64,000 nucleotides of DNA from Escherichia phage vB_Eco_J-01 (PQ438393.1), one strand, 5' to 3'; numbered from the stretch's first letter, positions 49,492 through 56,961 are shown. Numbers and translations are program-made. Notes: a model not told the origin generated them from the letters alone.

Positions 49492-49596
49492 TTATCCAAT
49501 ACCGTGGGAAGATAGGATCATGTTAGCCATAGTTGCAACTACTCCAACCGATAACGCCAGGCCAACTACTACAACCGTGAAAATTTTCTCTAACAT
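49492..49596 (-). CDS. small membrane peptide, 34 aa (not in ORF track; +/-1 nt)
   Basis: ATG after GAGGG; MLEKIFTVVVVGLALSVGVV...; first gene after a cassette. Confidence 0.4.
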   Translation of the reverse strand: MLEKIFTVVVVGLALSVGVVATMANMILSSHGIG

Positions 49597-49615
49597 GATT
49601 TTACCCTCATTAGTG

Positions 49616-49677
49616 GGCGTTGCCTTATTGCCCCGCCCTACGTGGTACACTTTACCAGATAACCGCATATTGTCAAA
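49616..49677 (-). promoter_or_regulatory. PeSL-like cassette with degenerate hairpin
   Basis: TTGACA, 16 nt, TAAAGT, GTACCACGTAGG, imperfect GC palindrome. Confidence 0.5.
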
Positions 49678-49948
49678 CTATTTTTTTCAAGCTCGACCAG
49701 TCAAAACACGGCGGGATCTCGTTAAAACTTGTACCCTGTAAAGCACATAATTTTTTAGCAATAGCCGCCGTGACCTGGCGCTGTACGCGCGGATCTGCTA
49801 CTGATTGGAGAAAGTAGGCGGCTTTATATGTGATCATGCTTTCGCCTGTTTCCTTGTTAACATGATGCACTATTTTAGCCTTATCATCTTTTACCAGGGT
49901 GTAACCGGATTCGATGGCCTTGATTGCAACGTTCAATGATATTTTCAT
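49673..49948 (-). CDS. hypothetical protein
   Basis: ORF track; AAAGAGG RBS just after hairpin. Confidence 0.5.
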   Translation of the reverse strand: MKISLNVAIKAIESGYTLVKDDKAKIVHHVNKETGESMITYKAAYFLQSVADPRVQRQVTAAIAKKLCALQGTSFNEIPPCFDWSSLKKIV

Positions 49949-49967
49949 GATTTACCTCTTTATTGAC

Positions 49968-49988
49968 GGCGGGGAATACTCCCCCGCC
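49968..49988 (-). promoter_or_regulatory. cassette-type GC palindrome without a promoter
   Basis: GGCGGGG-GAGTATT-CCCCGCC between two ORFs; no U tract. Confidence 0.5.
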
Positions 49989-49995
49989 TCATTAA

Positions 49996-50166
49996 TTACT
50001 CTTCATCGTCGCCGTTATAGTATTCAATGCCGTTTTCATCGGTTACAGTAATATTAACGCCACCGATAGCAACACGATCACGGGCAAACGTCATGGCTTC
50101 ATTTAAATCTTCAGACCAAAAAATATTGTGACCTTTGCGCGATACGTAAAACATAGTCGGGATCAT
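49996..50166 (-). CDS. small acidic protein, 56 aa (not in ORF track)
   Basis: ATG after AAGAGA; hand-translated MIPTMFYVSRKGHNIFW... Confidence 0.45.
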   Translation of the reverse strand: MIPTMFYVSRKGHNIFWSEDLNEAMTFARDRVAIGGVNITVTDENGIEYYNGDDEE

Positions 50167-50188
50167 GATTTGTTCTCTTTTGTTGTGA

Positions 50189-50248
50189 GCGGGAAACCAT
50201 TTCCCGCCCTATGTGATAAACTTTACTACGTTGTTTGCCTAGTGTCAA
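50189..50248 (-). promoter_or_regulatory. PeSL-like cassette
   Basis: TTGACA, 17 nt, TAAAGT, TTATCACATAGG, GCGGGAAATGGTTTCCCGC. Confidence 0.6.
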
Positions 50249-50249
50249 A

Positions 50250-50534
50250 TTATTTTTTAATGTTTTGCCCTACAAAATTGATCACTTCCTTAAGCTGTTT
50301 CTCAGTCATGATCGTGCCTGGTAATTCTTCTTTGATTTCTTCCGGTAGATAGATATTACCGCGCCAGGTTAATAAACAACCGTTTTGATCTTCGCAGATA
50401 GAATAAGAGAAGATCCACTCATTATCATTCTCAAGCTCCCAAAAGCACAAAAAATCTTCTTTCCCTAAATTTTCAACGGTTAAACATAATCCGCGACGTG
50501 CTGCATAGTTGGAAAGTGCTTTTGTGATCTTCAT
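50250..50534 (-). CDS. hypothetical protein
   Basis: ORF track; start directly after cassette. Confidence 0.5.
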   Translation of the reverse strand: MKITKALSNYAARRGLCLTVENLGKEDFLCFWELENDNEWIFSYSICEDQNGCLLTWRGNIYLPEEIKEELPGTIMTEKQLKEVINFVGQNIKK

Positions 50535-50554
50535 AGCTTATCTCTTCTTTTAAG

Positions 50555-50616
50555 GCGGGGAAACCATTTCCCCGCTCTATGAGATACAATATACTACCCG
50601 TTAGGTGTGCTGTCAA
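50555..50616 (-). promoter_or_regulatory. PeSL-like cassette
   Basis: TTGACA, 17 nt, TATATT, GCGGGGAAATGGTTTCCCCGC; -35 abuts upstream stop. Confidence 0.6.
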
Positions 50617-50940
50617 TCAATAATCTTCAATATTTTCTACATTGACAAAAGTATGTTTATTTTCTAAGTTTTCGCCGTACCATTGCCCCATGTTGACTTC
50701 TGCGGTGCGCAACCAGGACATGCCGCGTTCTATCTTTTTACTTGCAATCTCGATCCGGCTTTTGCATAGTGCTTTCGCTTGCAATGTAAAAACACTATTG
50801 CCCTGTAATGCTTCCAGGTCATCATGTGCAAGGCGATACTCTTTAAAGCCTGATTCTATCATTTCAATAGCATCAAGTAAACGCGCGCGATGATAGAAAA
50901 AATCAGAGTTATCCAAATAAACACCGATCACAGATTTCAT
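50617..50940 (-). CDS. hypothetical protein
   Basis: ORF track 50617..51000; ATG 50940 after AAAAGGG. Confidence 0.45.
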   Translation of the reverse strand: MKSVIGVYLDNSDFFYHRARLLDAIEMIESGFKEYRLAHDDLEALQGNSVFTLQAKALCKSRIEIASKKIERGMSWLRTAEVNMGQWYGENLENKHTFVNVENIEDY

Positions 50941-50983
50941 AATTTTACCCTTTTGTTTGCGGCCTTTGCCGTTTTCAAGATAT

Positions 50984-51011
50984 AGTTTAAAGCATAACAA
51001 AAAATTGTCAA
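50984..51011 (-). promoter_or_regulatory. sigma70-like promoter
   Basis: TTGACA, 16 nt, TAAACT. Confidence 0.45.
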
Positions 51012-55566: not shown

Positions 55567-55567
55567 G

Positions 55568-55828
55568 TTAGTTCGCCTCTTCTGTTAGTAGTTTACAGAC
55601 CTTAAACATGCTTGCCGCGTCTTTTGACGGTAGCCAGCCTATGCGATACACTCCAGGGCCTGGATTAGTTATATCCGTTAATTGAGCGTTGCGATGATTA
55701 AAAATAGTGTAACCGCCGCCAGCACGGGGATAAACATTATCTTTAAACCTGATAGCGTATCTCGCCAGGTCGAACGTTGTAGCATGTTCAAAAGCGATCA
55801 CATTATCAAAAACTTTTAGAAAAAACAA
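55568..55828 (-). CDS. hypothetical protein
   Basis: ORF track; TTG start after GGAGG. Confidence 0.45.
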   Translation of the reverse strand: MFFLKVFDNVIAFEHATTFDLARYAIRFKDNVYPRAGGGYTIFNHRNAQLTDITNPGPGVYRIGWLPSKDAASMFKVCKLLTEEAN

Positions 55829-55830
55829 GA

Positions 55831-55977
55831 TTATCCTCCCCAGCGTTTAAAGCCCGTTGCACGGTTATTTTTTAACTCTCGTTTTAGTCTCTTGCAACGG
55901 TTTACAAGTGCAAACCGTGCCGGAGTCGTAACAGTAGCGCCGTTTTTGGTGTGAATACTCATTACATATTGTTTCAT
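55831..55977 (-). CDS. small basic protein, 48 aa (not in ORF track)
   Basis: ATG directly after cassette hairpin; hand-translated; stop 2 nt before next TTG start. Confidence 0.45.
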   Translation of the reverse strand: MKQYVMSIHTKNGATVTTPARFALVNRCKRLKRELKNNRATGFKRWGG

Positions 55978-55996
55978 AAAGTTTTATCCTATGTAA

Positions 55997-56049
55997 GCGG
56001 GAACTATTCCCGCTTTAAGATAGCTTATCAGGTTTTCGTGCAATGTCAA
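55997..56049 (-). promoter_or_regulatory. PeSL-like cassette
   Basis: TTGACA, 16 nt, TAAGCT, GCGGGAATAGTTCCCGC. Confidence 0.55.
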
Positions 56050-56055
56050 CCGTTT

Positions 56056-56418
56056 TTATTCGTAAATTTTACCGCTTTCTACCCATACCATAACACGGCG
56101 CATGTTATCCCATGCATCTTGTCGCAGATTTAAGGCATGCAATTCTTCCGTGGTGCTCATGCCTGGTACGGGCTTGCTGTATGTTACAAAGAGATCGCCA
56201 GCATATTCATAAGCCAGGGTAAGATCACATTGAATCATCTTTTTAATCATAGCATCAAGCATCATATTAGCGGCATGTTGATCACGTTTCAGCGGTAACG
56301 TTGCGATCTGTGTGCGATAGCTTTCGATCCGTGCATCCACTGCACCACGCGAAAGGTTTTTCACGTCATCGCGGAAAGATACCAGATTAAACATGATAGT
56401 ATTGATTTGCTTGCTCAT
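56056..56418 (-). CDS. hypothetical protein
   Basis: ORF track. Confidence 0.5.
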   Translation of the reverse strand: MSKQINTIMFNLVSFRDDVKNLSRGAVDARIESYRTQIATLPLKRDQHAANMMLDAMIKKMIQCDLTLAYEYAGDLFVTYSKPVPGMSTTEELHALNLRQDAWDNMRRVMVWVESGKIYE

Positions 56419-56440
56419 TGCATTACCCTTTCTTTGATTT

Positions 56441-56501
56441 GGCGGGAAACCATTTCCCCGCCTTATGTGGTATATATTAACAAATTATTTTTCAGTGTCA
56501 A
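56441..56501 (-). promoter_or_regulatory. PeSL-like cassette
   Basis: TTGACA, 16 nt, TAATAT, ATACCACATAAGG, GGCGGGGAAATGGTTTCCCGCC. Confidence 0.6.
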
Positions 56502-56504
56502 GCC

Positions 56505-56777
56505 TTAAAGCAAAAACGCTACATCTTGCGCTTTTAGTGTAGTGTCGATCATTTTCGGGCTTTTATAATCCACAAATCGCGCGGTTTTTTCAATAGCGAA
56601 ACCGAGATAATCTTGTTTATTGAAATTACATTCTTTTTTAAACGTTTCCCGTGCCACTGTGATCGCTGCGTCCAGGGATAAACGCCCATCAATATTGATG
56701 TTAGCGAAAGATCCGCCACCGCGCATAGGTTTACCAGTGATGCCAGCTACGATCATTGATGCGCTATATGATGCCAT
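56505..56777 (-). CDS. hypothetical protein
   Basis: ORF track. Confidence 0.5.
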   Translation of the reverse strand: MASYSASMIVAGITGKPMRGGGSFANINIDGRLSLDAAITVARETFKKECNFNKQDYLGFAIEKTARFVDYKSPKMIDTTLKAQDVAFLL

Positions 56778-56801
56778 GATTATTTCTCTCTTCTGTTATG
56801 A

Positions 56802-56857
56802 GCGGCACTATTGCCGCCCTATGTGATAAACTTTACCAGAATAAAAAACGTTGTCAA
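56802..56857 (-). promoter_or_regulatory. PeSL-like cassette with variant hairpin
   Basis: TTGACA, 16 nt, TAAAGT, TTATCACATAGG, GCGGCA-ATAG-TGCCGC. Confidence 0.55.
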
Positions 56858-56865
56858 GAATATTT

Positions 56866-56961
56866 TTAGAAAATAACAACCGCCACTACAATCCAAAATG
56901 GAACGGCTAGAATGATAGCGTTAATCGTTCCAACCGTCAAGCTGTTTTCTTTCTTGATCAT
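56866..56961 (-). CDS. small membrane peptide, 31 aa (not in ORF track)
   Basis: ATG after AAAAGG; MIKKENSLTVGTINAIILAVPFWIVVAVVIF. Confidence 0.4.
   Translation of the reverse strand: MIKKENSLTVGTINAIILAVPFWIVVAVVIF

Follow-up and report, generated by a model that had tools for sequence, protein, structure and literature searches.

Between positions 49492 and 56961 of Escherichia phage vB_Eco_J-01 (PQ438393.1), counted within the 64,000-nucleotide (nt) stretch of DNA that was analyzed as a whole (the window), an array of promoters and hairpins leaves gaps between its listed genes, and the question raised by this locus is whether the short open reading frames (ORFs) in those gaps are genes. 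A first-pass annotation made from the sequence itself had pointed to many unlisted ORFs of 26 to 59 amino acids (aa) there, some of which were suggested to act in host takeover or superinfection exclusion. Eleven such ORFs, labeled A to K (Table 1), are considered here; all lie on the minus strand, and all coordinates are those of the window, which represents a phi92-like coliphage (Justusliebigvirus, Stephanstirmvirinae) with 97% identity to phages Paula and Nernie over 49400-57100 (megablast). Genome comparisons show that the small ORFs exist, that they are under purifying selection at the protein level as judged from their substitution patterns, and that they are members of named families, and we place at about 0.8 the probability that nine or more of the eleven are true coding genes and have the family assignments given below. 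Under the explanation that we prefer, the gaps of the promoter-hairpin array would be filled by genuine, translated small genes belonging to a nonessential accessory region.

Evidence that the small ORFs are coding

All seven ORFs named in the first-pass annotation (A, B, C, D, F, J, and K) were found at the coordinates given for them, on the minus strand and with ATG starts, and the size range proposed there also fits H and I, with G and E being of like kind. After masking of the sixteen ORFs of at least 60 aa (E included), the 2948 nt of remaining gaps hold nine ORFs of at least 25 aa that combine an ATG with a Shine-Dalgarno (SD) motif on the coding strand and none on the opposite strand, compared with 0.84±0.94 (maximum, 5) in 300 shuffles. 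The SD motifs, which had been described as properly spaced, indeed consist of a 4- to 6-nt core located 5 to 10 nt upstream of the start codon in all ORFs but B, where there is only AAGAGA.

For sequence comparisons, we used 10 close relatives (L001 to L007, L012, L013, and L015) and a divergent set (L008 to L011, L014, and L021 to L025). The ATG, the SD motif, and the length of each small ORF are kept in every genome that carries its segment. Among the 10 close relatives, there is 1 insertion or deletion (indel) event in the 1309 nt of small ORFs, compared with 44 in the 1676 nt of spacers and 17 in the 4452 nt of large genes, in which they are mostly compensating pairs within divergent patches; these counts amount to 26 indels per kb of spacer and 0.8 per kb of small ORF. 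Had the small ORFs accumulated indels as fast as the spacers, 34 events would have been expected in them (Poisson P = 4e-14); the sole event observed sits at the first base of E. Frame-disrupting differences between close relatives, named in the first-pass annotation as the observation that would speak against coding, do not occur inside the small ORFs.

Substitutions follow the codon frame, with variable sites at the first, second, and third positions numbering 23/15/77 over all eleven ORFs (P = 1e-13), 14/10/46 over the seven ORFs named at the outset (P = 6e-8), and 8/8/23 over the four hydrophobic ORFs (P = 0.003). Pooled ratios of nonsynonymous to synonymous polymorphism (pN/pS) in the small ORFs range from 0 to 0.35, whereas that of a rival frame at 50937-51086 is 1.64. 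Divergent full-length homologs with ATG and SD motif are present for A (50% identity), C (42-48%), E (43-65%), F (60-63%), J (66%), and K (48%), and these settle most decisions between gene and nongene. Seven of the 10 ORFs scanned against PHROG families (all but I) match one (A, B, C, E, F, G, and J), and D, H, and K match none. Codon-usage coding scores are informative for B, G, and I but tell nothing about the shortest and most hydrophobic ORFs, since 61% of the control ORFs on the plus strand have scores above zero as well. The proposal that these are real coding ORFs is thus well supported by the codon-position pattern, by the absence of frame disruption, and by the divergent full-length homologs.

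Several observations weigh against this reading, either for the set or for individual ORFs. Codon-usage scores are weak for H and K, and a literature search for expression data on phi92-like phages returned generic transcriptome papers only. Hydrophobic ORFs can arise by chance, and the spurious frame at 50937-51086 is itself hydrophobic. The hydrophobic peptides have no functional homolog, and their neighbors are all without assigned function. The absence of B, H, and I from phi92 indicates that the set is partly dispensable. In phage alia (L003), the T run at the end of K (56866-56875) is one base shorter, such that K extends by four codons into the next -35 element. The remaining points concern D, the least supported ORF of the array. 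It has only seven variable sites (3 synonymous and 4 nonsynonymous, of which 3 are conservative; pN/pS, 0.35), too few for a test, and its codon-usage log-likelihood ratio of -0.9 is uninformative. No relatives of D were found outside the genus, including by a HMMER search of 1.84 billion representative proteins, in which the sole true relative is a metagenomic deletion-fusion variant (P0004) of 33 aa in which the 21 N-terminal residues of D are fused to the 12 C-terminal residues of the 128-aa gene at 48883-49269. This fusion indicates that a natural variant has deleted about 2.3 kb (within 48883-51265), and with it A, B, and C as well as the genes of 107, 94, 91, and 71 aa, and the block from D to the 128-aa gene is, to judge from the fused frame, dispensable.

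D is located between gene g100 and C, and its SD motif, the best in the array, is formed by the last codons of g100, just as the stop codon of D overlaps the SD motif of C. Full-length matches with at least 93.5% aa identity are present in 55/55 records, and there are no indels in 15 aligned relatives. No D-like ORF occupies the same position in Phapecoctavirus, where there is a promoter cassette instead. We put the odds of D being a real gene at about two in three.

Table 1. Positions and main features of small ORFs A to K in the 64,000-nt window
ORF	Length (aa)	Coordinates	Strand	Upstream signal	Features
A	34	49492-49596	minus	GAGG 8 nt upstream of ATG	Hydrophobic single helix
B	56	49996-50166	minus	Weak SD AAGAGA	Acidic, net charge -7
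C	39	51041-51160	minus	TAAGGA 6 nt upstream	Predicted tail-anchored membrane peptide
D	31	51170-51265	minus	SD TAAGGAG	Hydrophobic; probable gene
E	60	52030-52212	minus		Equals phi92 gp238
F	45	52331-52468	minus		Basic, net charge +8; T7 gp1.1 family; equals phi92 gp237
G	56	52930-53100	minus		Basic; equals phi92 gp235
H	26	53805-53885	minus	AAGGAG 8 nt upstream	Basic, net charge +7
I	59	54688-54867	minus	Own consensus promoter 54932-54905	Acidic
J	48	55831-55977	minus		Basic, net charge +11; T7 gp0.6A homolog; equals phi92 gp228
K	31	56866-56961	minus		Predicted membrane peptide, C-terminal helix

Homologs of T7 early proteins

The charges that had been proposed for F and J (basic) and for B (acidic) hold (Table 1), and the two basic ORFs are related to early proteins of T7. 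J, the first gene of a unit that continues with genes of 86 and 184 aa, aligns with T7 gp0.6A at 56% identity over 50 positions (BLASTP; E value, 9e-18), and the 51-sequence family of J matches gp0.6A with 99.8% probability (hhalign). Precomputed annotations assign the Pfam family PF26851 (Phage_T7_0_6) to the 98%-identical protein P0001 and to each of the 52 relatives of J. On a 39-kb T7-like contig, one member of the family (P0032) occupies the gene 0.6 slot, flanked by ocr/gp0.4 on one side and by the gp0.7 kinase/RNA polymerase genes on the other. The conserved core of the family reads VMxIHTxxGATVxTPxxFAxxxRxxRLKRELxxN; all 5 variable sites of J in the close relatives are synonymous, and the homolog in Klebsiella phage KP13-26 has the same length of 48 aa at 66% identity.

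T7 gp0.6A resembles J in size (53 versus 48 aa), in its basic character, and in having its gene in a region read by the host RNA polymerase. It differs in coming from a T7-like podovirus and in having a 0.6B form, whereas J is encoded by a 148-kb myovirus in which no counterpart of the frameshift-extended 0.6B was found, the 86-aa ORF after J (55568-55828) being without similarity to T7. J aligns to positions 2-48 only of the 111-position profile of phrog_8393, and its AlphaFold model, with one helix at residues 22-37 and a mean predicted local distance difference test score (pLDDT) of 68.8, is too weak to support a fold search. T7 Gp0.6 reportedly inhibits MreB (Molshanski-Mor et al. 2014, as cited in PMC5624674 and PMC6965359). 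By homology, J would bind the actin-like MreB as gp0.6A does, disturbing cell wall elongation, a proposal to which we give even odds and which makes MreB a testable target prediction.

F, the second gene of its unit, matches the Pfam family PF08200 (Phage_1_1) over residues 5-44 of its 45 with 46.1 bits against a cutoff of 21 (E value, 6.5e-12). BLASTP aligns the C-terminal half only of F with T7 gp1.1 (E value, 4e-7), 14 of 18 residues being identical in KGDKRNKTKRDRSTKRYW, and tblastn returns the same match; the motif common to both proteins is KGxKxNKTKRDRSxKRxW. Homologs of F at 60-63% identity retain KGDKRNKTKRDR, and its pN/pS is 0.15. F is also similar to gp1.1 in size, in charge, and in its position as a small cistron behind a larger gene. 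It would share the role of gp1.1, whose co-expression with Ocr shuts off host protein synthesis and about whose function nothing further is reported there (PMC7064336).

A tblastn comparison of the whole window with T7 recovered no ORF resembling a T7 gene besides J and F, and PDB sequence searches with F, J, B, and G gave no match at an E value of 0.1. Of the host takeover role originally suggested for the small ORFs, homology thus supports the part that concerns J and, weakly, that which concerns F. The occurrence of gp0.6 and gp1.1 homologs in a 148-kb myovirus shows that these tiny early genes move between unrelated phage groups.

Membrane peptides

The description of A, C, D, and K as hydrophobic single-helix peptides is borne out by their best 17-residue Kyte-Doolittle means (2.35-3.02), and their uncharged runs of 19-30 residues are long enough to span a bilayer. 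On the basis of hydropathy, single-pass insertion into the inner membrane is predicted for the peptides A, C, and K, and probably for D.

A (best 17-residue hydropathy, 2.68) is the first gene behind a promoter at 49676-49649 and a hairpin, and a 71-aa gene starts 10 nt after it. It is intact at 34 aa in 13/13 loci that carry it, has variable sites of 4/2/8 by codon position and a pN/pS of 0.25, matches phrog_14631, and is present in 156 GenBank records, all full length. Its homolog in an rV5-like phage (CPT_Murica158) is 34 aa long and 50% identical, lies likewise directly before a 71-aa gene, and conserves both the helix and the tail ATMxNMILSSxGIG. A longer, 58-aa version of A, given in some records, was rejected, its start being inside the promoter, whereas the shorter start backed by an SD motif agrees with the divergent homologs.

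C is the last gene of the g100-D-C unit (pN/pS, 0.14). Its N-terminal motif YxVxNPAxxEGR, followed by a hydrophobic tail, is kept across three phage groups, with homologs of 39 aa at 42-48% identity in Phapecoctavirus and of 41 aa in 52-kb Rosemountvirus phages, where they are annotated as “membrane protein.” Residues 6-39 of C match phrog_10979 “membrane protein” (E value, 1e-8), and this family (VOG6014; Rosemountvirus yarpen gp16) shares with C the NPAxxEGR motif and the C-terminal hydrophobic helix, its label being itself a prediction.

K (best 17-residue hydropathy, 3.02) follows a promoter at 57117-57089, from which a leader of about 120 nt separates it, and its end precedes the next -35 element by 8 nt. 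It is present in 113 records, 104 of which cover at least 80% of the peptide, with homologs at 48% identity in Klebsiella phage KP13-26 and at 87-90% in Phapecoctavirus; variable sites number 3/1/7 (pN/pS, 0.23). Codons 1-29 are free of indels, whereas the tail is variable, giving total lengths of 31-37 aa, and relatives other than alia swap the last 2-6 residues; these length slips and replacements indicate that the C-terminal tail of K is loosely constrained. The leader of K also contains a start-stop mini-ORF, ATG-TAG, at 57035-57030 on the minus strand, 5 nt behind a strong SD motif, AAGGAGG, at 57047-57041. This mini-ORF, identical in L001 to L003 and L013, could be a translational control element for K.

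The membrane peptides, A, C, K, and probably D, may bind host membrane proteins, with exclusion, a transport block, or envelope remodeling as possible effects. Superinfection exclusion, as raised in the first-pass annotation, may be their role as one possibility among several, and we would attach any specific role to them only tentatively, with low confidence. Pfam and PHROG scans of ten neighboring larger genes gave no functional assignment for any, so the operon context offers no functional hint for the membrane peptides. T4 Imm and Sp and HK97 gp15 are small phage membrane proteins, made during infection or lysogeny, that exclude superinfecting phages, and AcrZ, MgrB, and SgrT are small bacterial membrane regulators; all are short and single pass and bind larger membrane proteins or the DNA entry route. 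They are functional analogs only, with no sequence similarity detected to A, C, D, and K, which are shorter than the phage exclusion proteins. As conserved phage microproteins of unassigned function, the membrane peptides enlarge an existing pool and leave current understanding standing.

The four hydrophobic peptides could also be viewed as membrane-damaging toxins, similar to type I toxins or holins, that depolarize or permeabilize the host. Hok/TisB-type toxins and pinholin-type peptides are small and have a single hydrophobic helix, a likeness shared by these peptides of 31-39 aa, which furthermore stand behind strong constitutive-type promoters. We regard a toxin-like role as unlikely, however, in that the plus strand has no antisense promoter scoring above 9/12, no Rfam family is present, and Pfam and PHROGs return no match to characterized toxin or holin families. 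The peptides are moreover encoded in a sigma70 accessory array amid small hypothetical genes, not beside lysis genes, and an early depolarizing toxin would harm the replication of the phage itself.

A 26-residue peptide on a mobile unit

H is contained in an 88-nt unit, consisting of AAGGAG, a spacer, and the ORF, that fits between the stop codon of a 79-aa gene and the next TTGACA. The unit is precisely present or absent among relatives, genomes that lack it having 8-9 nt in its place. H occurs in 36 records (Justusliebigvirus, Phapecoctavirus, and a Klebsiella phage), mostly unannotated, and the peptide is identical in 33 of them. The copy in Klebsiella phage phi1_175008, whose flanks are unalignable, differs at 13 of 81 nt, with 11 of the changes synonymous and 2 conservative (F to Y and R to K). 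At least 11 synonymous changes among 13 would arise by chance with P = 7e-7, and H is, by this substitution pattern, under strong purifying selection. Some records give H a 34-aa version; its start lies inside the upstream gene, and the short start backed by an SD motif agrees with the divergent homologs.

We envisage H as a basic peptide that would travel on its mobile unit of SD motif plus ORF. T4 Stp is a 26-residue peptide that modulates a host enzyme or defense system, and if H were such a specific modulator, it would constitute a new minimal mobile counterdefense gene. A tblastn search of 50,697 phage records (E values up to 10) found no T4-type phage match that would relate H to stp and returned relatives from phi92-like phages and Phapecoctavirus, two records of Klebsiella phages, and a single weak match in an unrelated 41-kb coliphage. 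That H, together with K and D, which are likewise without a family, stands for uncharacterized classes of phage microproteins is a doubtful proposition, for which H would make the strongest candidate.

The remaining small ORFs

B has its own promoter (50248-50220) and hairpin and is co-transcribed with a 91-aa gene. Its variable sites number 2/0/12 by codon position (pN/pS, 0.02), its codon-usage log-likelihood ratio is +23, it matches phrog_20874, and it is annotated as Paula_0076 and alia_120. E has homologs of the same length at 43-65% identity, matches phrog_25271, and has a pN/pS of 0.27. A near-consensus, sigma70-like promoter lies inside the 3' part of E (52060-52088, minus strand; TTGACA, a 17-nt spacer, and TATAGT; 11/12), a placement suited to expression of the following gene (51620-52021); the counterpart of that gene in phi92, gp239, has a predicted signal peptide. 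G has its own promoter-like site and hairpin, variable sites of 3/0/9 (pN/pS, 0.05), and homologs at 70-94% identity, and it matches phrog_13689. I has a codon-usage ratio of +30.6, a pN/pS of 0.16, and homologs at 75-92% identity, one of which is in the rV5-like phage Murica.

Organization of the array

The minus strand carries every gene of the array stretch, and a promoter scan found 17 sigma70-type sites scoring at least 10/12, 17/17 of them on that strand, and no plus-strand promoter scoring above 9/12. Most promoters are followed in order by a GC-rich hairpin (e.g., GGGCGGGAAATGGTTTCCCGCC), an SD motif, and an ATG, which together form a typical cassette. Gaps longer than about 170 nt each hold one or two small ORFs with ATG and SD motif, whereas those of 82-88 nt consist of promoter-hairpin cassettes only. 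The cassette hairpins are placed between the -10 element and the SD motif and have no T run on the coding strand; a terminator scan recovered 6 sites against 8.3 expected, i.e., no excess, and an Rfam scan of 47000-59000 matched zero families. From their placement and sequence, an identity as intrinsic terminators is less likely for the hairpins than one as 5'-leader structures or as recombination sites. Records of phage Paula (L001) label them “terminators,” often on the noncoding strand (window examples such as 52860-52888). Tandem promoters at 55008-54980 and 54932-54905 (minus strand) enclose a hairpin and an SD-like stretch with no ORF (window 54905-55011), and this segment looks like a cassette emptied by gene loss.

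The first-pass annotation held that most of the small ORFs end a few nucleotides before the next -35 element, and this description fits H, G, and K (1-8 nt before TTGACA) and, loosely, I (19 nt) and C (29 nt). A, D, and J instead run straight into another gene, and B and F run into hairpins: 3' of B there is a hairpin with an SD motif and no promoter, and 3' of F there is a terminator-like GC hairpin with TTTT.

We picture the array as a series of independently promoted accessory units that would be transcribed by the host sigma70 RNA polymerase, with expression probably early, judging from promoter type alone. A, B, G, I, J, and K, each with its own sigma70-type promoter, would head units, and D, C, F, and H would be tightly packed downstream cistrons with their own SD motifs; the small genes would form a mixed set rather than one system.

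Such packing raises the question of whether the small ORFs are only leader or coupling cistrons that set the expression of the next gene and whose peptide sequence is functionless. The short distance between the stop of A and the next ATG would suit this role, as would the overlaps that link the end of g100 to the SD motif of D and the stop of D to that of C, the retention of the pairing of A with a 71-aa gene in an rV5-like phage, and the little amino acid constraint seen in D. However, A, C, F, J, and K have pN/pS values far below 1, and the helix and tail of A and the N-terminal motif of C are conserved as peptide sequence. H, F, C, K, G, and I, being last in their unit or just before a promoter or hairpin, precede no gene in their units and lead nothing, which makes the leader-cistron explanation improbable.

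That the short ORFs are chance frames in noncoding spacers, conserved on account of regulatory DNA or RNA, is very improbable: although the array is dense in conserved regulatory elements, two frames that are conserved but clearly not genes (50937-51086 and 54612-54704) run across promoters and still have annotations in some relatives, and D, with a weak promoter-like site inside it (51232-51204), is statistically indistinguishable from conserved spacer, the third-position excess, the difference in indel rates, the retention of length, start codon, and SD motif in homologs at 42-66% identity, the synonymous changes in H, the lack of ORFs with ATG and SD motif on the other strand, and the empty Rfam scan already contradict this explanation for every ORF, D possibly excepted.

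Related loci and cassette systems

At least 80% of 49400-57100 is covered by 35 GenBank records (megablast), and a more sensitive search shows pieces of it to be mosaically common to Phapecoctavirus, rV5-like Vequintavirus, Klebsiella phages, and jumbo coliphages; an IMG/VR neighbor search added 3 loci only. Hyperplastic regions of T4-type phages contain cassettes of a promoter-early stem-loop (PeSL) with ORFans (PMC2839356). Like those cassettes, the array combines a strong sigma70-type promoter and an adjacent GC-rich hairpin before small ORFans, and whole cassettes or minigenes (H, B, and I, as well as extra cassettes) are gained or lost between near-identical genomes; the sharing of array cassettes among Phapecoctavirus, Vequintavirus, and jumbo phages is a further likeness. 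The array differs in belonging to the Stephanstirmvirinae and in having its hairpins downstream of the -10 element and without a U tract, features that do not suggest intrinsic terminators.

Annotation status

The small ORFs are not new, each having an entry as a “hypothetical protein” in one or more GenBank relatives, and to call them unlisted is correct only with respect to a 60-aa cutoff and to some reference annotations. Phage phi92 annotates E, F, G, and J (Table 1); A, members of the C family, D, and K have annotations in one or another of Nernie, ZYD, Bas60, Murica, and phiWec186, and Nernie and PsgM04F list H with a longer start. The phi92 sequence contains A, C, D, and K without an annotation. 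The main significance of these results is for annotation quality, in that A, C, D, H, and K are missing from the annotation of the phi92 reference and from those of several RefSeq relatives. In addition, the note “aminopeptidase-like fold” on phi92 gp228 is misleading and should read T7 gp0.6A-like.

Three other frames were considered and rejected. The ORF at 50937-51086 (49 aa), annotated instead of C in Nernie, ZYD, and Bas60, has no divergent homologs in addition to its high pN/pS, has no recognizable SD motif in the 18 nt upstream, stays open for 156 aa in L013, and overlaps both the promoter that follows and the start of the next gene. The ORF at 54612-54704, which lacks its first ATG in three relatives, overlaps both gene I and a promoter, and the one at 52275-52415 is a wrong-frame call that replaces F in Nernie. 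GenBank relatives including L002, L004, and L006 annotate these wrong frames (50937-51086, 54612-54704, and 52275-52415) instead of or beside C, I, and F, respectively.

Two further irregularities concern the records themselves. Base 49687 of the window is extra compared with all 9 relatives aligned there and alters the last few codons of the 91-aa gene (49673-49948), whose length is 276 nt in the window and 270 nt elsewhere; the extra base is either a sequencing error or a genuine C-terminal variant. Finally, about 20 UNVERIFIED “Campylobacter phage” records in GenBank (L019; MG0656xx) consist of Justusliebigvirus, Phapecoctavirus, or rV5-like coliphage sequence, and their “Campylobacter” host label is probably wrong.

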